63,503 bases of DNA from the NCBI GenBank assembly GCA_016177405.1, contig JACOVG010000009.1, positions 1-63,503 on the forward strand, read 5' to 3'. Each line of letters begins with the position of its first letter. The stretch's first letter is position 1. The stretch comes from Candidatus Omnitrophota bacterium. Its GTDB lineage: Bacteria; Omnitrophota; Gorgyraeia; 1-14-0-20-64-10. Positions 4,110-21,398 of this stretch are shown in pieces. A program made the translations under genes and the position numbers. The notes below the pieces were generated by a model. The model saw nothing but the letters and a program-made list of their open reading frames with translations. It made no database searches and was not told the DNA's origin.

Positions 4110-4197
4110 GGAGGGGTGCCGGAGTGGACGAACGGAGCGGTCCTGAAAACCGCCGAGGTCCTCGTGATCTCCGTAGGTTCGAATCCTACCCCCTCCG
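4110..4197 (+). tRNA. tRNA-Ser (anticodon UGA), class II long variable arm, C at position 33
   Basis: GGAGGGG/CCCCTCC acceptor, long variable arm, T-loop TTCGAAT, anticodon stem GCGGT/ACCGC with loop CCTGAAA. Starts 1 nt after the preceding stop codon. Confidence 0.75.
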
Positions 4198-4305: not shown

Positions 4306-4475
4306 CGTCATTGCGAGGCCCCGAAGGGGCCGAAGCAATCCCCGTTCGTCCTAAGCTTGTCGAAGGATGAACGTCATTCCCGCCCTCGATGTCATCCCCG
4401 ACTCGATCGGGGATCGGTCTCGAGGGCAGGCTCCAGCGGGAATCTCGTCATTGCGAAGGGCCGAAGCAGCCTCCC
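4306..4475. repeat. cluster of nested REP-like hairpins
   Basis: GTCATTGCGAGG..CGAAGCAATC (4307-4340). GTCATTCCCGC...GCGGGAATC contains a complete GTCATCCCCG..CGGGGATC unit (4391-4415) in its loop. A further GTCATTGCGAAGG copy follows. The ORF-track entries 4043..4643 here are translations of these repeats. Confidence 0.7.
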
Positions 4476-4499
4476 CTCGATTCTATGGCCTGCAGGGTA

Positions 4500-4606
4500 T
4501 ATACTGGTGCCAGCAAAAGGGGCCATTTCGGCACCAGTTACCTATGTTTAGGTTATGCCCTACAGGGTATAGAATGGAATGTATTTTCTGCCAGTAACCG
4601 TTTAGG
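4500..4606. repeat. island-1 left boundary repeats (B-type palindrome plus CAGTAACCGTTTAGG)
   Basis: TACTGGTGCC...GGCACCAGTTACC palindrome followed by GTTTAGG (4500-4552), then CAGTAACCGTTTAGG at 4592-4606. The latter is repeated as CAGTAACGGTTTTAGG at 11591-11606. Confidence 0.6.
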
Positions 4607-4620
4607 ATGCCTGACAAATT

Positions 4621-5751
4621 ATGAAAAATTTGTTTCCGGGTAAAACAATCTATGTGCTTGGGGCAGGCGCATCTATGCACACGGGGGCGCCACTCCTGAA
4701 CGATTTTCTAGCCCGGTCGCGGTCCCTGGTGGCGGGCAACAGCGGTTTGAAGTGGAAACCTGCCTTCGAGAACGTGCTGAGCTGGGTTGATTCCCTTCGA
4801 TCGCCAGCGTATTACCTCGACCTCGATCTCGACAATCTGGAGCATATCTTTTCGTTGATCGCCATGATGCAGGAAGTTAGTGAACCGCATGCAGACGAGT
4901 ATTACTCTGACATGTCAAAGTTGGTTTTTGAAACACTGGATAAAGAGTGTCAAGTCCAGCGGGCGGGCGGCCGTTACAATCCGGACCGTGTATATGAAAG
5001 GTTTGCGAAGCACGTAATGGATAGCAATGAAGAACGCAAACTTTCGATGCCCCAGTCCCAAGATGTTATCGTGACTCTGAACTACGACGTTTTGCTTGAC
5101 TATGTATTTTGGTTTGCATATTCAGGTTGTGATTACTGTCTTACCAAAAGCCGCGGGGAAGGGATTAGGTTGCTAAAACTCCATGGCTCAATGAACTGGG
5201 GTAGGCACCGGACGTGCGATGCGGAAGAAGGGAAACAGATTCAGGTTGTCAGAGCGAGTCCGATTGCAGATGGCCACCGCTGGATCTCACACGACGAAGA
5301 GAAAAGCCAAATCTTGCCATTTCAGATGTTTACCCATACGTTATATTACACTAAATGCAGGGGGTGCAAGAAAGACGGTGTTCTGGAACCCGTTTTTATT
5401 CCACCGACCTGGTTTAAAAGTTGCAGGGAGGAGCAGATCGATAATGTTTGGAAGCAAGCTGTAGAGGAGTTTAAAACAGCGCGTCAGATAGTAATAGTGG
5501 GGTATTCGCTTCCTCCAACAGATACTTTCTTGCCCTATTTATTGATGTTGGGTCTCGCGAACAACGCTGGATTGTATCGTGTTGTTGTGGTGAATCCGGA
5601 CAATCGAAATGATTTGCGTTCACGTTATGAGCGAATGTTCTCGAGAAACATGAGTGAACGCGGCCGATTGCAGTTCATGCCAATTGCGTTTGAGGTTTTT
5701 GTCGAAAGGTATTTGAGAGCTATTAGCGAAGGAGCACCAATAGAGGCTTGA
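4621..5751 (+). CDS. stand-alone SIR2-like (SIR2_2-type) protein, predicted NADase effector
   Basis: 376 aa. YVLGAGAS glycine loop, TLNYD Asn motif and LLKLHGSMNW (His188 at 5182-5184). Clear paralogue of 10547..11572. Confidence 0.7.
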   Translation: MKNLFPGKTIYVLGAGASMHTGAPLLNDFLARSRSLVAGNSGLKWKPAFENVLSWVDSLRSPAYYLDLDLDNLEHIFSLIAMMQEVSEPHADEYYSDMSKLVFETLDKECQVQRAGGRYNPDRVYERFAKHVMDSNEERKLSMPQSQDVIVTLNYDVLLDYVFWFAYSGCDYCLTKSRGEGIRLLKLHGSMNWGRHRTCDAEEGKQIQVVRASPIADGHRWISHDEEKSQILPFQMFTHTLYYTKCRGCKKDGVLEPVFIPPTWFKSCREEQIDNVWKQAVEEFKTARQIVIVGYSLPPTDTFLPYLLMLGLANNAGLYRVVVVNPDNRNDLRSRYERMFSRNMSERGRLQFMPIAFEVFVERYLRAISEGAPIEA

Positions 5752-5766
5752 TGGGGAGTAATTTCT

Positions 5767-5976
5767 GTGGACGCGAAGAAGCTCGGTAAGAAGATCAAGC
5801 TGGCCCGGGTGGAGCTGGATCTCACCCAAACCCAGCTTGCCCGGAAGATCGGCGCCAGGCAGAAAAGCATCTCCCGCTACGAGGCAGGGAAGTCAGTCCC
5901 CAAGGTTGAAACCCTTACAAAACTTGCCAGGGCTCTCAAGAAGCCGGCGGCGCATTTCTTGGATGAAACGGCATAA
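5767..5976 (+). CDS. XRE-family HTH regulator (C-protein-like controller)
   Basis: 69 aa, GTG start. LTQTQLARKIGARQKSISRYEAGKSVP helix-turn-helix. Directly precedes or overlaps the methyltransferase gene. Confidence 0.75.
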   Translation: MDAKKLGKKIKLARVELDLTQTQLARKIGARQKSISRYEAGKSVPKVETLTKLARALKKPAAHFLDETA

Positions 5977-7750
5977 CTGCATGTCACGCACTGGTAGATC
6001 TTCCCAATTGGCTCGCCCAAGTCAGCCAAAAGTGAGCACAGAAATTTTTACACAGCTATGTACCAATCAGAGGCCTACGGCAAAGAGCCAAAATTATCAG
6101 ATATGGAGCAAGGAAGAGCTTATAAGGGAAATCCAGAAGCTCGCAAAGCGGAAGAAGTATGGTGTTGTTTGGGAGGATAAACCTGAAGCAGTAGCTGATT
6201 TGTGCAAGGAAAAACTTCCTGTCTTGGCGGAGGATGAATTAAAGGCGGTTGTTTCAACCGAAGATGCGCCGGTGAACATATTGATCGAGGGAGATAATTA
6301 CCACGCCCTCTCGGTCTTGAACTACACCCATAAGGGCAGGGTGGACGTGATCTACATTGACCCGCCATTCAATACAGGGAATCAGAGCTGGAAGTACAAC
6401 AACGATTATGTTGAGAAGGATGATCAATGGAAACACAGCAAGTGGCTCTCATTCATGGACAAGAGGTTGCGATTGGCAAAGAGGTTGCTTGCTCCCAAAG
6501 GTGTGCTGATCTGCGCTATAGATCACAACGAGCAGGAAGGGCTCGGGCTGTTATTGCAGGAATTGTTTCCGAGCAAGGAAATAACCTGTGTGACGATCGT
6601 CCATAATCCAAGAGGAATACAGGGAAAGAATTTTGCCTATTGCCATGAATATGCCTATTTCGTCTATCCTCCCGGAGACAGCATCGGTAGAAAGCAGAGA
6701 CAGGAAGAAGACAAGGAATTTATGAACCTGAGGAACTGGGGTGGGGCTTCACGACGACGGGATGGGAAGAGCCTGTTCTACCCGATCTACTTCAAGAAGG
6801 GGAAGCTCATAAAAATCGGCGAGGTTCCTCAAGACAGCTTCCATCCAAAAAAGGCATACCTTGAATCCAAGGATGGTGTTGTAGAAATCTGGCCCATTGA
6901 TAACAAGGGAATAGAAAGAAAGTGGAGATATTCTCGGGCGTCTCTTGCGGAGCTCACCGAAGACTTACGACTGGCTTCCGTTGGAGGAGCGCTCCAGGTT
7001 CAACTGCTCAAGGATGAGGATAGGTACAAGACTGTCTGGATTGATACGAAATATGACGCCAATGCCTATGGAACGCAGTTAGTCCGAGAGCTCATCGGGA
7101 AGGAATTCCCCTTCCCAAAATCCCTCTATACAGTGAAGGAATGCTTGAACGCGGTTGCTTTGCACAACAAGAACGCGACGGTTCTGGATTTCTTCGCCGG
7201 CTCAGGTACGACTGGTCATGCCGTGTTGGAAATGAACAGAGCGGACGAGGGCGAGAGACGATTCATCTTGTGTACGAATAACGAGGGAAATATCTGCACA
7301 GAAATATGCCATCCTCGCATCAAGAAGGTTATCCAACAGTTAACGAAAGAAGCAAGGGGGGAAGCTGGTTCAGGCCGTCCGGGAGGCCTAAAATATTTCA
7401 GGACGGATTTTGTTGAGGCAACTCCTACTGACAAGAACAAGAAGCGTCTTGTAGACAAATCCACAGAAATGCTCTGCCTGAAGGAGGATTGCTTTGACGA
7501 GGTGAAGCGGACTGTGGACTACGCGATCTTTAGGAACGAGCAGGGTAAGCATCTTGGCATTGTTTATGAGGATGACGGGATTGAATCATTCAAAAGGGAA
7601 GTGAAAAGACTAAGTAGACAAACGGTTGTTTATGTTTTCTCCCTTGACGAGAGTGCGAGGGAAGAGGAGTTTGAGGATGTGCGCCTCCTTGTAGACCTGA
7701 AGCCCATCCCGGCAGTGATCTTGAACGTCTACAAGAGGATTTTCAAATGA
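5963..7750 (+). CDS. mod: type III R-M methyltransferase (Mod), beta-class N6A/N4C MTase
   Basis: IYIDPPFNTG (motif IV) precedes VLDFFAGSGTTGHA (motif I). The ORF-track start 5837 overlaps the HTH gene in another frame; in-frame ATGs at 5963 or 5981 are more plausible. Confidence 0.8.
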   Translation: MKRHNCMSRTGRSSQLARPSQPKVSTEIFTQLCTNQRPTAKSQNYQIWSKEELIREIQKLAKRKKYGVVWEDKPEAVADLCKEKLPVLAEDELKAVVSTEDAPVNILIEGDNYHALSVLNYTHKGRVDVIYIDPPFNTGNQSWKYNNDYVEKDDQWKHSKWLSFMDKRLRLAKRLLAPKGVLICAIDHNEQEGLGLLLQELFPSKEITCVTIVHNPRGIQGKNFAYCHEYAYFVYPPGDSIGRKQRQEEDKEFMNLRNWGGASRRRDGKSLFYPIYFKKGKLIKIGEVPQDSFHPKKAYLESKDGVVEIWPIDNKGIERKWRYSRASLAELTEDLRLASVGGALQVQLLKDEDRYKTVWIDTKYDANAYGTQLVRELIGKEFPFPKSLYTVKECLNAVALHNKNATVLDFFAGSGTTGHAVLEMNRADEGERRFILCTNNEGNICTEICHPRIKKVIQQLTKEARGEAGSGRPGGLKYFRTDFVEATPTDKNKKRLVDKSTEMLCLKEDCFDEVKRTVDYAIFRNEQGKHLGIVYEDDGIESFKREVKRLSRQTVVYVFSLDESAREEEFEDVRLLVDLKPIPAVILNVYKRIFK

Positions 7751-10455
7751 TCGAGCTGAAGAAGTATCAACACGACGCTGCGGATAACCTGAAAGAGCTG
7801 GTTGAGAAGGCGCTTAGATCTTCGGAGAATGAAGTGGTAATCTTCCAGGCGCCGACGGGCTCGGGGAAGACGCTCATGGTTTCCGAAGCCCTTAAGCGAC
7901 TTGTTAAGCACAGACCAGCAGGAGCCGGCCTCAGCTTCGTGTGGGTTTCAGTAAGGATGCTCCATGAGCAGAGCAAGGAGAAGCTCGAACGGTACTATGA
8001 GGACGACAGGCTCATCCAGTGCAGCTACTTCGATAATCTGGAAGACAGAAGAATTGCCGAGAACGAGATCCTGTTCATCAACTGGCACAGCATCAACAAG
8101 AAGGACATCAATATCTACGTCAAGGAAAACGAACAGGACAACAATCTCAATAGTATCGTCCAGAACACGAAGGATGAGGGTAGGCAGATAATCCTGATCA
8201 TTGACGAGAGCCACCATACAGCGAGCTCGGACAAGTCCAGGGAGCTGATTGAGGTAATATCCCCAAAGGCAACAATAGAGGTATCGGCCACGCCGCATCT
8301 CGCGGACGACGTCTCAGGCATTGAGAAGGTTCGCCTCGGGGACGTTAAAGGAGAAGAGATGATCAAATCGGAGATATCCGTGAATCCCGAATTCATGGAC
8401 ATAGAGATTGGCTCCAAGAGCTCGGACGAACTTGTCATAGAGCAGGCCCTGAAGAAGCGCGAGGAATTGGCGAAGCTCTTAAAGAAGCAGGGCTCGGAAG
8501 TGAACCCCCTCCTTCTAATTCAGCTTCCTGACAGGAAGGGAAACCTGATCAACAAAAAGGACACAGTAATAGAAATCCTTCGGAAGAAGGGCATCACTGA
8601 GCAGAAAGGCAATCTGGCTATATGGCTCTCAGAGGAGAAGTCCGACACGTTGCCGAACATCGAGAAGAATGACAACGATGTAGAAGTTCTGGTGTTCAAG
8701 CAAGCCATAGCATTGGGTTGGGACTGCCCTCGGGCAGCCATCCTCGTTATCTTTCGGGAATCGCACAGCTTCGTGTTTACTATCCAGACAATCGGCAGAA
8801 TCATGCGAATGCCAGAGCTTCGCTACTACGGAGAGGAGGAGTTGAACAAGGGCTTTGTGTTCACCAACCTGCCAAATATCGAGATTACCGAGGACTACGC
8901 GAAAGATTACGTTACGGTGTATGAGGCAAAACGGGACGATGCTCTATACAAGGAGGTTGCCCTGCCCTCAATCTATCTCAGAAGGCAGAGGGAAAGGACC
9001 AGGCTGTCAGGGAAGTTTGTAGATATCTTCCTGAGTGTGGCAGAGGAGTATAACTTGCAGAAGAGGATAACCGCAATCCCTTCGAAAGTGGTCAACCCGA
9101 TTATCGCCGATGGAAGAATTGTGAACATAGATCAGTCTGGGGAGGTTGCCCACAAGGGAACTGTTGACGTTCAATTGAATGAGGCGGAGCTACAGGATCG
9201 CTTTGACAGATTCGTGGCAGATATGTGTACACCCTTTGCTCCTGGCGATTCAAGCGACAGGATGAAGACAGCTCTGTATCAGTTCTTCAAGAAGACAACC
9301 AGGATTGATAAGTATAATCCGAGAGTCCAGCGCATTGTTCTTGGAAAGGAAAACGTTCAGACCTTCGTTGACACCATCAATATGGCAAAGGAGAGATTCC
9401 GGGCAGAGGTCATAGGAAAGTTGCAAGAGACGAGAGAAAAGGAGGTCACTCCAAAGTGGGAAATCCCTGCAATCACAAGCTACAACAGCAGGTACAAACG
9501 CCAGGATAAAACCAGATCAATAATGAAGCCGTTCTATGTAGCGAAACAGACTAGGCCCGAAGAGCAATTCGTAGAATTTCTTGAGGATTCAAAGCGTGCG
9601 AAGTGGTGGTTTAAGAATGGCGAGAGTGACCCGAGATATTTTGCTGTGCTTCGCACTGATGGCGCAGCGTTCTATCCCGATTTCATAGTTCAATTTGACA
9701 ACGGCAAGATTGGCATATTTGACACCAAGAGTGGAATAACTGCCAAGGACGCGAAAGAAAGGGCCGAAGGCTTGCAGAAGTACATCAAAGAGCAGGTCAA
9801 GAAGGGCAGGAAACTGTGGGGAGGCATCGTGCTCTCCAAGGACGGAAGTTTCAGGTACAACGATTCAGAGGTTTATTCTTTTGACGAAAAGGCGTTGGGG
9901 ATGGACTGGAAAGTTCTGAGTTTCGAGCGAGTTGAGAGAGAGGCACCTCCTGTCTCCACCATAGCCCCGCTTGAACGTATTGTGCCGGAAGAGGAGGAGA
10001 AGTACCGGACATGCGTTCCCCACCGGACGCTCAAGGCGGCCGCCGGGTCATTTGGAGAGGCGCAGACTGTTGAGCCGGATGGGTGGGTTAAGGTTCCGAC
10101 GTCTCGCCGCCTGCGCCCAGGTATGTTCGTTGCTCAGGTTGTCGGTCGGTCCATGGAGCCGCTCATTCCGTCGGGATCGTGGTGCCTCTTTGTGGGGCCT
10201 GTAGAGGGTAGCCGGCAGGGTCGCATCGTCCTTGTCCAGCACCGCGACATCCAGGATCCGGAGACGGACGGAAGCTACACGGTGAAACGCTATCGGCGCA
10301 CAGGGGAGAGTAACAGGGAAGGGGCAGAGCGCCACGGCGAGATTCGCCTGGAGCCGCTAAATCCCGAGTTTGAGCCGATCATCCTCAAGAATATCCTTGA
10401 GGATGAGGTACAGGTCATTGCTGAGCTCGTGGAAATACTCAAGGTACACCTGTAA
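7747..10455 (+). CDS. res: type III restriction enzyme Res (SF2 helicase plus PD-(D/E)xK nuclease) fused to a C-terminal S24 LexA-like peptidase domain
   Basis: FQAPTGSGKT, IIDESHH, SATP and QTIGRIMR helicase motifs. YPDF...IFDTKSG nuclease motif. The last ~150 aa carry LKAAAG/S (Ala766-Gly767), VVGRSMEP (Ser802) and TVKRY (Lys847). ATGA overlap with mod. Confidence 0.8.
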   Translation: MIELKKYQHDAADNLKELVEKALRSSENEVVIFQAPTGSGKTLMVSEALKRLVKHRPAGAGLSFVWVSVRMLHEQSKEKLERYYEDDRLIQCSYFDNLEDRRIAENEILFINWHSINKKDINIYVKENEQDNNLNSIVQNTKDEGRQIILIIDESHHTASSDKSRELIEVISPKATIEVSATPHLADDVSGIEKVRLGDVKGEEMIKSEISVNPEFMDIEIGSKSSDELVIEQALKKREELAKLLKKQGSEVNPLLLIQLPDRKGNLINKKDTVIEILRKKGITEQKGNLAIWLSEEKSDTLPNIEKNDNDVEVLVFKQAIALGWDCPRAAILVIFRESHSFVFTIQTIGRIMRMPELRYYGEEELNKGFVFTNLPNIEITEDYAKDYVTVYEAKRDDALYKEVALPSIYLRRQRERTRLSGKFVDIFLSVAEEYNLQKRITAIPSKVVNPIIADGRIVNIDQSGEVAHKGTVDVQLNEAELQDRFDRFVADMCTPFAPGDSSDRMKTALYQFFKKTTRIDKYNPRVQRIVLGKENVQTFVDTINMAKERFRAEVIGKLQETREKEVTPKWEIPAITSYNSRYKRQDKTRSIMKPFYVAKQTRPEEQFVEFLEDSKRAKWWFKNGESDPRYFAVLRTDGAAFYPDFIVQFDNGKIGIFDTKSGITAKDAKERAEGLQKYIKEQVKKGRKLWGGIVLSKDGSFRYNDSEVYSFDEKALGMDWKVLSFERVEREAPPVSTIAPLERIVPEEEEKYRTCVPHRTLKAAAGSFGEAQTVEPDGWVKVPTSRRLRPGMFVAQVVGRSMEPLIPSGSWCLFVGPVEGSRQGRIVLVQHRDIQDPETDGSYTVKRYRRTGESNREGAERHGEIRLEPLNPEFEPIILKNILEDEVQVIAELVEILKVHL

Positions 10456-10546
10456 GGCTGGCTGTGTGTCAAGGCAATGCTAGTAGCCTTCGGGATTTAG
10501 GGCGTTTGTATGTAGGTGGTCAAAGTGTGAGTTGGTTACTACCTAA

Positions 10547-11572
10547 ATGAAGATAGCTCGCCTTTCCCTTGAAAAAAGAGCAGCGGTAATTCTTGGTGCG
10601 GGAGCAACAAGGGGCGCAAGTTGTTTCAAGAATACCTGGAAGGTTCCACCTTTGGATGGAGACTTTTTCTCGAAAATCCAGATGATTGCTGACGAACTGC
10701 CAGGAGGCGAGTCGGCAGAGCTTCTTTCGTTAGCTCGTTCAGAATTTGGTGAAGAGTTAGATGTCTCGATGGAGAAATTCTTTACCCAAATTGAATTCCT
10801 CGATACATTTCATAGAGATTTAAGGATACGAGGACCTAGAGTTAGAAGATACGATGACATTTTAAGGAACTATGTTGGAACGATAGCGTCTGTATTCGGG
10901 GCAATTCTTCTCGAGAGCAACGGTCGAGAGAAGTCTTGTGATTATCACGATGCGCTTGCAGCCGCTCTCCAGCCTCGAGATGTGATTCTATCTTTTAATT
11001 ATGATTGTCTCATGGACAGGGCTCTTCAGAAGCACTCTGGAAAACGCTGGAGCGCTGGAAGAGGATATGGTTTCGAGATCAAGAAGGGTATCGAAGGATG
11101 GCAGAATCGTGCTGGTAAGGGGCGGATTGCCAAGGAATCGATTTTGCTTCTGAAGATGCACGGCTCGCTCAATTGGGATAGGCGCTGGAGGGGCTATACA
11201 AAATTGCGCTCGGAACCGTACACTTCAGACGTTCGTGGATCTAACGAGATAATTCCCCCCATTTGGAATAAGGACATTGCTGGCGACAATAAGTTGGCTG
11301 GGGTATGGAAGATGGCGCGGATGGCTTTGAGACGCGGTCCGATTCTATTGGTAGTTGGATATTCTGTTCCAGAGACCGACTTACTGAGCCAGGCCTTGAT
11401 AAGGGTAGCAACCTCCGAAGGTTCAAGGAAGCTATCGCATCTAATCATAGCCAACCCCGATCTCGAAGCGAGAGCGAGAGTTAAACGATTGGTTCGGAAG
11501 GCTATTGGGGATAGGACGAGGGTGATTGAATTGGAAACATTTGAGGAGTTGGCGGAACTACTAAGACCGTAG
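10547..11572 (+). CDS. stand-alone SIR2-like (SIR2_2-type) protein, paralogue of 4621..5751
   Basis: 341 aa. VILGAGATRGAS, SFNYDCLMD, LLKMHGSLNW (His205 at 11159-11161), VVGYSVPETD. Collinear motif order with the first SIR2-like ORF. Confidence 0.7.
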   Translation: MKIARLSLEKRAAVILGAGATRGASCFKNTWKVPPLDGDFFSKIQMIADELPGGESAELLSLARSEFGEELDVSMEKFFTQIEFLDTFHRDLRIRGPRVRRYDDILRNYVGTIASVFGAILLESNGREKSCDYHDALAAALQPRDVILSFNYDCLMDRALQKHSGKRWSAGRGYGFEIKKGIEGWQNRAGKGRIAKESILLLKMHGSLNWDRRWRGYTKLRSEPYTSDVRGSNEIIPPIWNKDIAGDNKLAGVWKMARMALRRGPILLVVGYSVPETDLLSQALIRVATSEGSRKLSHLIIANPDLEARARVKRLVRKAIGDRTRVIELETFEELAELLRP

Positions 11573-11590
11573 TGATTAAATACTGCAGAG

Positions 11591-11744
11591 CAGTAACGGT
11601 TTTAGGGTAAGGTACCTTCTTTGACGTAGATTTCAAAGGTGGTGTCTTGTAGCTTGATGTCTCGGATCCGGGATTTGTGGCGGCTGTACCGCCTGGCGGC
11701 TGTACCGGGTTCCGAGGGGACAGGTAACGAACCGGAGGTTTCAG
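11591..11744. repeat. island-1 right boundary repeats (CAGTAACGGTTTTAGG plus partial A-type element)
   Basis: CAGTAACGGTTTTAGG at 11591-11606. TGTACCGGGTTCCGAGGGGACAGGTAACGA at 11701-11730 resembles the A-type element GGTACCGGGTACGCGGGGGACAGGTAAC of island 2. Confidence 0.55.
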
Positions 11745-11746
11745 AC

Positions 11747-11914
11747 ATGGCGGAAGGTGGATTCTTAGTCACGTTTGACGCGAAGAAGGCAAAACCCCAA
11801 AGGTGTTACGCGGTGGCGTTTGATTACGATGAGTGGGCTTACAGTGTCAATGATAAGAAAAAGGCCGCGATACCCAAGGGAACTGCAAAGATCACCATTG
11901 AGATTGAGCTGTAG
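11747..11914 (+). CDS. small hypothetical protein (55 aa)
   Basis: ATG at 11747 preceded by GGAGGT 8 nt upstream. The longer ORF-track start 11639 lies inside repeat sequence. No recognisable motif. Confidence 0.3.
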   Translation: MAEGGFLVTFDAKKAKPQRCYAVAFDYDEWAYSVNDKKKAAIPKGTAKITIEIEL

Positions 11915-13406
11915 CAGGGGCAACGCCAAGATCGCGCGGTCGGCAGGCGCGCTCGCGCTCACCCTCCTTGCCGCCCCCGCCTATCCCTACCAAGCCGACG
12001 TTGAGCTGATCCCGCCGGGCCGCTACGCGGAGGTCACCGTGCGGGAGATCCGGCAGGCCAAGACCTCCATCCACCTCGTCATGTACCTCATCTCCCTGCC
12101 GCCGACCAAGACCAGCTCGGTGGTGCACCAACTGCTGGATGCCCTCGTCGAAGCCCAATCGCGCGGGGTGGCTGTGCAGGTGGTCCTGGATGAGAACGTG
12201 GATTGGAGCGAGGACAGCGTCCTGAACTTCCAGGCTGTCTCGGAGAAGAATGGGCCGGCTGCCCGGTACCTCCAAGCGCGGGGGGTTCGCGTATTCTTCG
12301 ATGATGCGACAATGTTCACGCACGCGAAGACCCTGGTCATTGACGAAACGACCACCATCCTCGGATCTGCTAACTGGAGCGAGACGGCCCTCACCCAAAG
12401 CGTAGAGACCAACACCTTGATCCGCTCCTCCGCCTTCGCCCGGGAGGTTCTGCGGAGCCTGGCGGCCGTGGCGCGGCATGCCTCGGCGGCGGGGGCCGCG
12501 GAAGGCGTGCCGGTGTCCTGGGCGTTCCTGGGCGATCCGGCATTGCTGGGGCGGCTGGTGGCCGCCCGGGATGTGCGGGCGTTGGATCTCTACCTGCTGT
12601 TGCTGCGGCGGTTCGACGGGAATCCCGAGGGCAGGGTGGCCATTCACGATGAGACCATTCGAGAGGCGCTGGGCGTCCGGAAGTATCCCGACTGGCAGAA
12701 CACCGTCTGGAAGGTACTGCGGCGGCTGGAGCGCCGCTACGGGTTGATCACCGCCACGGCTGGTCAGGATCGGACCGTGCGGCTCAAAACCCCCGGCCGT
12801 CCCTCCGAACCTTACCAGGCGCCGCTCAACGCCACCGTCCGGGTGCCTGCCGGCTACTGGGAGTGGGGCTGGCACCGAACACTGACCTTGCCTGGCAAGG
12901 TGATGTACTTGTTGGGCCAGCATTACGCCGCGGTGTCGCCCACGGCCCCGGTGTGGTTTCACTCGCTGGAGCATCTGCAGGCTGCTCACGGGTTTTCGAG
13001 CGAGTTTGCCCAGCGTGGCCTTCGGGAGCTTCGCCGGCGCAATCTGGTGGACGCGAAGGCGGATGTGTTGGCGCCGGGGCAATACCATCGGCGGAAGGCC
13101 AACCGGTATGTTCTCCGTGCGTTGTATGACCCGGCCGTGCCGGCGAAACAGCTCGCGGCTTTGGAGGTCCGGCACGGGCGCCAGACCGTCCGGCGGGCGG
13201 CGGCCTACGCCGCGCTTGTGTATGAAGACAACGATGTGGGGGCCATCGAACGGTTGATCCAGTTGGAAACGTTGTATGGCCCCTCCGTGGTGCGGACCGC
13301 CGCCCGCAAGATTGGTGCCATGCATGGGAGCAACCCCAAGCGGACGGCAGCGTATCTCATTCGGACCATCGAGGGGATCGGCCGCGACACCGCGCGGGGC
13401 AAGTGA
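11904..13406 (+). CDS. secreted single-HKD phospholipase D/Nuc-like protein with C-terminal winged-helix-like region
   Basis: FTHAKTLVIDETTTILGSANWSETAL (HxK...GSxN; His codon at 12321). Signal-peptide-like ARSAGALALTLLAAPAYP. A TTG at 11904 gives a sensible N-terminus; the ORF-track ATG at 11775 overlaps the upstream small ORF. Confidence 0.6.
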   Translation: MSCSRGNAKIARSAGALALTLLAAPAYPYQADVELIPPGRYAEVTVREIRQAKTSIHLVMYLISLPPTKTSSVVHQLLDALVEAQSRGVAVQVVLDENVDWSEDSVLNFQAVSEKNGPAARYLQARGVRVFFDDATMFTHAKTLVIDETTTILGSANWSETALTQSVETNTLIRSSAFAREVLRSLAAVARHASAAGAAEGVPVSWAFLGDPALLGRLVAARDVRALDLYLLLLRRFDGNPEGRVAIHDETIREALGVRKYPDWQNTVWKVLRRLERRYGLITATAGQDRTVRLKTPGRPSEPYQAPLNATVRVPAGYWEWGWHRTLTLPGKVMYLLGQHYAAVSPTAPVWFHSLEHLQAAHGFSSEFAQRGLRELRRRNLVDAKADVLAPGQYHRRKANRYVLRALYDPAVPAKQLAALEVRHGRQTVRRAAAYAALVYEDNDVGAIERLIQLETLYGPSVVRTAARKIGAMHGSNPKRTAAYLIRTIEGIGRDTARGK

Positions 13407-20928: not shown

Positions 20929-21049
20929 CTCCCCCCTCTTTTTGCCTATTGAGTTTCCTAAGGTAACGGTTTAGGTTTCTCATCTTCTTCGGGTGCCAGG
21001 TTTGACACCCACTCGGTTTGCCCTTACACTTGTATCGATTGTGGTTCAT

Positions 21050-21398
21050 TCCCCGGTAGCTCAGTTGGTAGAGCGGGTGACTGTACACGAAGTTAGCAGC
21101 CCCGGCCGGAAACGGCCGGGTGAAACAGCGAGTAAATTCAGGGAACCCCGCCAAGATTTGTGGCGGGCAATCCTGAGCCAAGCCCTGTCTTGTCATCCCC
21201 GCGTAGGCGGGGATCGGAAGTTGGGGAAGGTGCAGAGACTAGACACTCGCCACCTAAAGGTACAGACCGTCATTGCGAGCCCCGCAGGGGCGAAGCAATC
21301 TCGCTTGTGCCCATGGTGAAGGGATAGTCCTACCCCCTCGGTAACGAGGGAAGGTCGTAATCACCATGTCCCAGGTTCGAGTCCTGGCCGGGGAGCCA
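21050..21398 (+). tRNA. tRNA-Asn (anticodon GUU) interrupted by a group I intron in the anticodon loop
   Basis: Exon 1 is 21050-21084 (TCCCCGGTAGCTCAGTTGGTAGAGCGGGTGACTGT). Exon 2 is 21358-21398 (TAATCACCATGTCCCAGGTTCGAGTCCTGGCCGGGGAGCCA). Joined they give a canonical class I tRNA with loop CTGTTAA, close to my recollection of E. coli tRNA-Asn. Confidence 0.85.
21085..21357 (+). ncRNA. group I (IC3-like) self-splicing intron
   Basis: 273 nt. The 5' exon ends in U, which can form a U.G pair with intron GCAG (P1 CUGU/GCAG), and the intron ends in G. Core strings AAATTCAGGGAA, CAATCCTGAGCCAAGC and GGTGCAGAGACTAGAC..CCACCTAAAGG closely resemble my recollection of the Azoarcus tRNA-Ile intron. 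Confidence 0.8.

Follow-up and report, generated by a model that had tools for sequence, protein, structure and literature searches.

In type III restriction-modification (R-M), DNA cleavage is ATP-dependent and requires two inversely oriented unmodified sites. In the S24 peptidases, a family that includes LexA, UmuD and lambda CI, self-cleavage is stimulated by filaments of RecA on single-stranded DNA (ssDNA). Here we describe a locus in which these two kinds of protein appear to be joined. It lies in a 63,503-nt stretch of DNA (the window) from a Candidatus Omnitrophota bacterium (contig JACOVG010000009.1), and its five genes encode, in order, a SIR2-like protein (SIR2-A), a small XRE-family helix-turn-helix (HTH) protein, a type III methyltransferase (Mod), a type III restriction subunit with an S24 tail (Res) and a second SIR2-like protein (SIR2-B). 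In our reading, to which we give a probability of about 0.6, the block (about 4476-11914) is a horizontally acquired defence cassette of ~7.4 kb next to a tRNA-Ser gene, assembled from separable modules around an S24-tailed type III core.

Mod and Res are predicted to form a type III R-M pair. As in EcoP15I and EcoP1I, mod precedes res with a stop/start overlap, Mod is of the beta class, and Res combines a superfamily 2 (SF2) helicase with a PD..D.K nuclease. Mod matches N6_N4_Mtase (Pfam, 7e-26) and MTase_III (PADLOC, 4.5e-72), and its DPPF motif (residue 127) lies ahead of FAGSG (residue 405), which is the beta-class order, with a variable target recognition domain between them. Res matches ResIII (Pfam, 9.4e-23) and REase_III (PADLOC, 1.3e-17), and contains the helicase motifs GSGKT (38), DESHH (153) and QTIGR (347) and the nuclease motif PD..D.K as YPDF..FDTK (643-661). 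The window differs from the described systems in a small HTH gene ahead of mod and in an extra ~180-residue linker and S24 domain on Res, which is missing from thousands of close relatives. The HTH protein (HTH_3, 9.5e-16) is a putative controller of the operon; its match to the PADLOC Control_protein model is weak (2e-4), and it has better matches to the RmrA N-terminus and to CapH. A first-pass annotation of the window, made without database searches, had named the HTH, Mod and Res genes, the S24 tail and the ATGA overlap of mod and res, and had placed five open reading frames (ORFs) on the + strand; Pfam, PADLOC and the ORF listing agree with it on all of these.

The tail of Res is an intact S24 domain of the LexA/UmuD type that has both an Ala-Gly site and a Ser-Lys dyad and is predicted to be capable of self-cleavage. 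Residues 765-895 match Peptidase_S24 (PF00717) at 9e-11 (41.9 bits; the cutoff is 23.3). Cleavage is predicted between A766 and G767 (KAAA/GS, residues 763-768, nt 10033-10050), the predicted nucleophile is Ser802 (GRSMEP) and the predicted general base is Lys847 (TVKRY). Among 21 aligned tails the AAAG, Ser and Lys are near-invariant, with Ser802 and Lys847 kept in at least 90%. The Ala-Gly site precedes the Ser-Lys core as it does in LexA, UmuD and lambda CI (MEROPS S24), and VP..L.AAAG, G.SMEP and TVKRY align to LexA. A profile search of the PDB with the tail finds LexA and lambda CI structures with weak E-values, and a PDB search with the tail as a single sequence gave nothing useful. Unlike these proteins, the Res tail has a nuclease/helicase as its N-terminal partner rather than a DNA-binding repressor domain, and the tail family forms a clade of its own.

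The Res core belongs to a very large and conserved family, with thousands of tailless relatives of ~726 residues (~70-77% identity) in bacteria of the Candidate Phyla Radiation, archaea and others. In a search of 5.8 billion proteins, an S24 tail on this core was found outside the window only in the proteins P0002 (80% identical) and P0003 (72%); the loci L001 and L002, described below, are where these two are encoded. An assembly or frameshift artefact was considered and rejected, given that six contigs from several samples carry the identical protein and that proteins of 72-80% identity retain the fusion. Further contigs that encode exactly the proteins of the window stem from the same study and have the same gene arrangement. 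The Res-S24 fusion is a new form of type III R-M and one instance of a widespread tail family.

The modular make-up of the block is seen by comparison with L002, which is evidently the same element, with the gene order AAA_14/DUF4143, HTH, Mod, Res-S24. The HTH genes are 90.6% identical in nucleotides (96% in amino acids) and the Res-S24 proteins 80% identical, and the TRD region of Mod (the variable domain described above) is not alignable between the two. Similarity extends beyond the genes on both sides: window 4476-4606 aligns upstream of gene 1 in L002, including the 24-nt repeats at 4484 and 4554, and window ~11610-11766, in which a small ORF (MAEGGF...) begins, aligns with the L002 sequence that directly follows Res-S24 (blastn, 11702-11766 against L002 6546-6610, 85% identity). 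Within this shared frame gene 1 is swapped, being SIR2-A in the window and AAA_14/DUF4143 in L002, and the position of SIR2-B is empty in L002, so that SIR2-B was either inserted in the element of the window or lost from L002 by deletion.

Two further S24-tailed type III loci were found. L001 has Mod and Res-S24 followed by an AbiJ_NTD4 gene, among housekeeping genes, and has neither the HTH nor a SIR2 gene. In the IMG/VR contig L128 (3622-9556), Mod and Res are of an unrelated type III lineage with an S24 tail 42% identical to that of the window, and the 352-residue product of the gene downstream of Res is not a sirtuin. A SIR2 gene is thus lacking from the three S24-tailed type III loci other than the window (3/3: L001, L002, L128), and the SIR2 genes appear as optional, swappable cargo in variable slots rather than as fixed parts.

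The block is mosaic in composition. Past the spacer that follows tRNA-Ser the GC content falls from ~0.65 to ~0.48; it is ~0.46-0.50 within the block and 0.62-0.69 outside, in line with the AT-richer block described in the first-pass annotation; the flanking serS and PLD genes have 0.65. GC and GC3 are unequal among the modules, with GC of 0.478 in SIR2-A, 0.571 in HTH, 0.477 in Mod, 0.49 in the Res core, 0.599 in the S24 tail and 0.476 in SIR2-B.

The tail is found on many other defence enzymes. Res residues 731-902 were compared with 1.84 billion cluster representatives. The matches amount to 1714 clusters at E<1e-3; of these, 1060 pass E<1e-10 and 156 pass E<1e-30, and identities are up to 64%. 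In 135 of the 150 best matches the match ends no more than 15 residues from the C-terminus, and the 89 matches with at least 100 upstream residues fall into at least 23 unrelated partner groups. Partner domains were counted in 59 long tail-bearing examples. The Pfam partners are ResIII (11), Type_ISP_C (10), Eco57I (7), Schlafen-type helicase (6), MZB/DUF1998 (6), the HsdR C-terminal domain (3), HNH (3), STAND NTPases and PLD; by PADLOC they are type IIG (10), type I (9), DruE (6), AbiO/Nhi (6), type III (4) and DrmMI (3). The tail of the window shares 57-63% identity with tails of unrelated proteins and only 50% with the tail of the orthologous Res of L001, although the two Res cores are 78% identical, which shows that the tail shuffles among enzymes. 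In 3/3 loci its GC content is above that of the enzyme to which it is fused. The tail is a promiscuous C-terminal module that moves between enzymes.

Mobile elements yielded few tails. None matched at 1e-6 among 50,697 phage records, L128 was the one good match among the 2.9 million viral contigs of IMG/VR, and plasmids gave one match only, in an unannotated and apparently frameshifted Halomonas sequence. In the unannotated replicon NZ_CP040452.1 of Halomonas sp. PA16-9 (L127, 6995-9465), an S24-tail homologue of 41% identity is a separate 159-residue ORF that overlaps, in another frame, the end of a 686-residue ORF, and may be a frameshifted fusion. No paper on S24-tailed restriction or defence enzymes came up in full-text searches of one library, an absence that is not proof of novelty; the family, on at least 23 unrelated partners, appears to be as yet undescribed.

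Restriction endangers the host chromosome after DNA damage, recombination or the acquisition of a new system, and to our knowledge it is only for certain type I enzymes that self-protection is understood, via ClpXP alleviation. In the mechanism that we favour, at somewhat short of even odds, the S24 tail is a damage-triggered off switch that protects the chromosome. Mod would methylate its site, and Res would act as helicase and PD-(D/E)xK nuclease, as their sequences suggest. RecA-ssDNA filaments would form, for example when unmodified sites in the chromosome are cut or upon general DNA damage, and the tail would then cleave itself at A766-G767 via Ser802 and Lys847 in the manner of LexA. The cleaved Res would end in ...TLKAAA-COOH and could be recognised by ClpXP-type proteases, as an end like those of ssrA-tagged proteins and the LexA N-terminal domain. 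Restriction would thereby be shut off, as a cis-encoded form of restriction alleviation. An off switch is preferred because of this predicted end, which we take to resemble the ends of ssrA and of the LexA N-terminal domain (presumably VAA-COOH in the latter). LexA cleavage exposes latent ClpX signals by which its N-terminal fragment is destroyed (PMC10584840), and ClpXP degrades HsdR in restriction alleviation (PMC4231737). The proposed logic is like that of EcoKI, where the nuclease subunit is proteolysed when the chromosome is at risk (PMC4231737); there the stalled translocating enzyme is recognised in trans, whereas here an autoprotease that is built in and responds to RecA would be the trigger.

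Alternatively, the tail may work in the opposite direction, auto-inhibiting Res until RecA filaments on the replication or recombination intermediates of a phage bring about its removal and so release or raise the nuclease activity during infection; the conserved cleavage site and dyad apply here too. Partners that are not guided by methylation, including DruE, STAND NTPases and Schlafen-like helicases, would gain from such an infection signal, and CapH/CapP offers a precedent in the DNA-damage-triggered proteolytic activation of defence expression. We consider this on switch unlikely, if the strongest of the alternatives: most partners are classical restriction enzymes, the tailless relatives (~70-77% identical) need no activation step, and activation by host DNA damage risks autoimmunity.

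With either direction of switching, the range of partners suggests a portable safety or regulatory switch on DNA-targeting defence enzymes. More tentatively, and with slightly less confidence than we place in the off switch, the tail may represent an undescribed general regulatory layer of prokaryotic immunity, in which a portable RecA-filament-sensing autoprotease is carried, as an off or an on switch, by nuclease and motor subunits. This would cover type I, ISP, IIG and III enzymes, Druantia DruE, Schlafen/Nhi-like helicases and others. If so, switching of the tailed enzymes would follow DNA damage or phage replication intermediates, the off state would be marked by an exposed ...AAA-COOH degron, and immune enzymes would be tied to the SOS signal at the level of protein, in a direct way. 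Carried by more than 1000 clusters of restriction and defence nucleases, such a self-cleaving tail that responds to RecA would then be a simple cis-encoded answer to self-restriction, and the two SIR2 genes of the window could serve as a backup after restriction is switched off.

The two SIR2 proteins resemble those of SIR2-HerA (Nezha), ThsA and DSR2, with which they share a Rossmann GAGxS motif and the N and H catalytic motifs, and which include their best structural matches. SIR2-A has GAGAS at 14, NYD at 154, HGS at 188 and conserved Cys at 199, 246 and 249; SIR2-B has GAGAT at 17, NYD at 151 and HGS at 205; and GAGxS, NYD and HGS are invariant within both families. SIR2-B scores 30.6 bits with Pfam SIR2_2, above the gathering cutoff of 24.5, and SIR2-A only 18.1 bits, below it. 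The SIR2 fold proposed for both in the first-pass annotation is supported by the profile for SIR2-B, and for SIR2-A by structure prediction and Foldseek. The AlphaFold2 model of SIR2-A (pLDDT 90) has the SIR2 of SIR2-HerA as its best Foldseek match (E 3e-9); that of SIR2-B (pLDDT 92.6) matches the same protein at E 7e-10 (TM 0.57-0.61) and also ThsA and DSR2. The Foldseek probability to SIR2 structures is 1.0 for both models, and the order of their PDB matches is SIR2-HerA SIR2, then ThsA, DSR2 and classical sirtuins. The two proteins share 25% identity (E 6e-17) and are distant paralogues.

These similarities do not extend to the known systems as wholes. HerA/DUF87 domains are absent from the five genes and their flanks, and the block contains neither the APAZ nor the pAgo that would be expected for SPARSA. 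Thoeris is not indicated either, as there is no TIR or SLOG match and the window proteins are SIR2-only in length. DSR1 and DSR2 have ~1000 residues with a C-terminal sensor, as opposed to 341 and 376 in the window, and DSR2 aligns over its SIR2 domain only. SIR2-A and SIR2-B were therefore rejected as members of SIR2-HerA, Thoeris, DSR or SPARSA, their partners being absent. PADLOC, which matches Mod and Res with its type III models, gives only weak and partial matches to both SIR2 proteins (best E 2e-8; Aga_SIR2 is among them). Both SIR2 genes are most likely independent single-gene NAD-consuming abortive-infection effectors rather than obligatory subunits, with NADase activity expected from fold and motifs.

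The first-pass annotation had joined the five genes into one candidate composite system, to be checked by recurrent synteny of the SIR2 genes with type III mod/res, including S24-tailed Res. Comparison across genomes does not support it. The genomic neighbourhoods of SIR2 relatives were sampled in 80 genomic loci (SIR2-B family) and 40 metagenomic loci (SIR2-A family); both families consist of stand-alone proteins of like length, with best relatives 52% (SIR2-B) and 64% (SIR2-A) identical. The neighbours are diverse, and in 0/120 loci was there an S24-tailed type III Res, the window's HTH, or both paralogues together. A similar small HTH occurs near SIR2 in only 1/120, and the idea that the HTH protein is an antitoxin or other partner dedicated to SIR2-A was rejected on this ground. 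The one SIR2 locus with an S24-tailed protein, L071, encodes DrmD-like, IIG/DrmMI-like, SIR2, DarT, DarG and DruE-S24 proteins; as an ordinary defence island it was rejected as a link between SIR2 and the tail. We conclude that the SIR2 genes are probably facultative cargo that favours restriction loci.

Several points weigh against separable modules. The five genes all point the same way and are spaced by 15, 4, -4 and 91 nt, and SIR2-A is probably co-transcribed with the R-M genes because it sits between the conserved promoter region and HTH. A restriction-type enzyme lies within 500 nt in 25/120 SIR2 loci (16/80 SIR2-B, 9/40 SIR2-A) and at 5-10 kb in 5/67, a near/far contrast inflated by search seeds that came from such neighbours. 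Most of these neighbours share the strand of the SIR2 gene and stand very close to it (gaps of -22 to +45 nt in many loci). They include type IIG/MmeI-like enzymes (L009, L036, L043, L051, L055, L063, L071, L072), HmaA and HmaB on either side of SIR2 (L045, L082, L085-L090, L108, L116, L118; PADLOC HmaA 5e-189, HmaB 2e-130), helicase-nucleases (L006, L013, L034) and Mod-like methylases (L030, L064). The coupling idea thereby survives in weaker form: stand-alone SIR2 families adjoin restriction-type enzymes, which leaves room for functional coupling. Our reading also leans on predicted properties, namely NADase activity from the fold and motifs of the SIR2 proteins, and autocleavage, RecA dependence, a degron and a putative direction of switching, off or on, for the Res tail.

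The slot between HmaA and HmaB is used by both families, with a SIR2-B relative in L045 and SIR2-A relatives in L085-L090. In these loci (e.g. L088 6496-15695) the SIR2 reading frames overlap or nearly overlap HmaA/HmaB, and the gene that follows HmaB in L088 gives a pAgo-like match with PADLOC (1e-26). Gene insertions are found in 66.5% of hma systems, the hmaA-hmaB gap has been called a hotspot, and inserts in Halomonas hma include Septu, PARIS and Ppl (PMC11232893). The Hma host system differs from type III and SIR2 is not among the inserts named (PMC11232893); the slot behaviour is like that around the type III core of the window. Because the position between HmaA and HmaB is a published insertion hotspot for independent systems, adjacency to restriction genes alone shows no coupling.

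An integrated composite, in which R-M is wired to the SIR2 proteins as its backup effectors and these deplete NAD+ once restriction has been blocked or evaded by a phage, is in our view improbable. The SIR2 proteins might be silenced by Mod/Res as PrrC is by EcoprrI, or freed on cleavage of the S24 tail. PrrC-EcoprrI is the only precedent known to us, and is alike in having a suicide-type effector gene in or beside a restriction operon; in the window the effector is a sirtuin instead of an anticodon nuclease, and the association is facultative. The operon-like layout, the place of SIR2-A between the conserved promoter region and HTH, the recurrence of both families within 500 nt of type IIG, Hma, Mod-like and helicase-nuclease genes, and their shared use of the Hma slot all speak for such wiring. 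Set against this, the composite is unsupported because SIR2 is missing beside the S24-tailed type III cores, the same or analogous, of L002, L001 and L128; ~80% of SIR2 relatives lack an R-M-type gene next to them, no locus among the 120 has both paralogues, the hmaA-hmaB gap is a documented hotspot for unrelated systems (PMC11232893), and the SIR2 relative of L071 stands amid DarTG, DruE and IIG genes in a plain defence island. As L002 illustrates with its swapped gene 1, tidy co-oriented blocks in defence islands are not necessarily single systems.

That the S24 tail is a dimerisation or scaffold domain only, joining two Res or two enzymes without regulated cleavage, is very improbable, since the Ala-Gly site, Ser and Lys are near-invariant in diverged tails on unrelated partners, which is unexpected if catalysis is dispensable, even though LexA/CI C-terminal domains dimerise and type III cleavage needs two cooperating enzyme complexes; for the tail we thus rank the off switch over both the on switch and this structural role.

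Features of the block and its borders in the window.
Feature	Position	Strand	Basis or remark
tRNA-Ser(UGA)	4110-4197	+	ARAGORN; nearest host landmark on the left; no right-end duplicate
Left regulatory region (predicted)	4476-4620	+	blastn, 81% identity to L002 46-104, plus alignment
Left repeat CAGTAACCGTTTAGG	4592-4606	+	sequence and pattern search; not significant as a pair
SIR2-A	4621-5751	+	stand-alone, 376 aa
XRE-family HTH	5767-5976	+	69 aa, HTH_3
Type III Mod (predicted)	5981-7750	+	beta-class N6-adenine methyltransferase
Type III Res with C-terminal S24 tail (predicted)	7747-10455	+	Pfam, PADLOC, motifs
Linker and LexA/UmuD-type S24 domain	9901-10452	+	Peptidase_S24
SIR2-B	10547-11572	+	stand-alone, 341 aa
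Right repeat CAGTAACGGTTTTAGG	11591-11606	+	where similarity to L002 resumes
Right flank of element with small ORF	11610-11914	+	kept in L002 directly after Res-S24

The left region contains two direct repeats of ~24 nt (4484-4507 and 4554-4577, TATGSCCTNCAGGGTATA..., repeat family D6) and is a predicted promoter/operator for gene 1, HTH, mod and res. Compared with L002, there is no conserved non-coding DNA directly upstream of HTH; the conserved repeats precede gene 1 instead. The in-frame ATG of Mod lies 4 nt past the HTH stop codon, and the TTG at 5837 was rejected as a Mod start, being an artefact of the ORF listing. The tRNA-Ser gene had been described as directly upstream of the block; it is present, but does not abut it, and the spacer of ~280 nt holds two copies of a repetitive extragenic palindromic (REP)-like element (CGTCATTGCGAGG..CCGAAG.., 4306-4331 and 4446-4471).

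The direct repeats that were said to bracket the block exist at both places, as imperfect copies that are one mismatch and one indel apart. Local alignment of the boundary regions is no better than chance (p = 0.13-0.36 against shuffles), and a looser pattern search finds a third related copy at 4535-4552. The core GTAAC(S)GTTT(T)AGG recurs as GTAACGGTTTAGG at 20963-20975 (+), in host DNA 9 kb outside the island, and GTAAC-N1-3-TTTAGG has three exact matches in the window against 0.01 expected, as for a short dispersed motif; it is absent from L001 and L002. The tRNA 3' end (25 nt, up to 3 mismatches) has no second copy and is unlike the repeats, and a Pfam scan found no integrase domain. The repeats were rejected as attachment (att) sites on the grounds of the p-values, the lack of a tRNA 3' duplication, the absence of the motif from L001 and L002 and the copy at 20963. 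The signs of a tRNA-integrated island were likewise lacking, there being no integrase, no duplicate of the tRNA 3' end and no significant repeats. The position of the right repeat at the point of resumed L002 similarity is possibly coincidental.

The small ORF after the block (+; ATG 11748-11914, or GTG 11639; MAEGGFLVTFD..., MAEGGFLVTFDAKK...) has no Pfam match, and probably belongs to the mobile cassette because its start and upstream region are conserved in L002 directly after Res-S24. Right after the island, 11904-13406 (+) encodes a PLD-family protein (PLDc_2, 2e-23) of host-like GC (0.65), which is DrmC-like at 1e-16 but under the NCBIfam cutoff; this gene may be a defence gene that reached the hotspot earlier. 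The repeat copy at 20963-20975 lies ~70 nt upstream of an intron-containing tRNA gene (21050-21398, +), which is split by a group I intron (RF00028, 70 bits, 21056-21351). With introns allowed, ARAGORN tentatively calls the gene tRNA-Asn(GTT), with a 273-nt intron (21050-21398). The group I intron contains a REP-like GTCATTGCGAG...GCGAAGCAATC, like the elements at 4306-4331 and 4446-4471.

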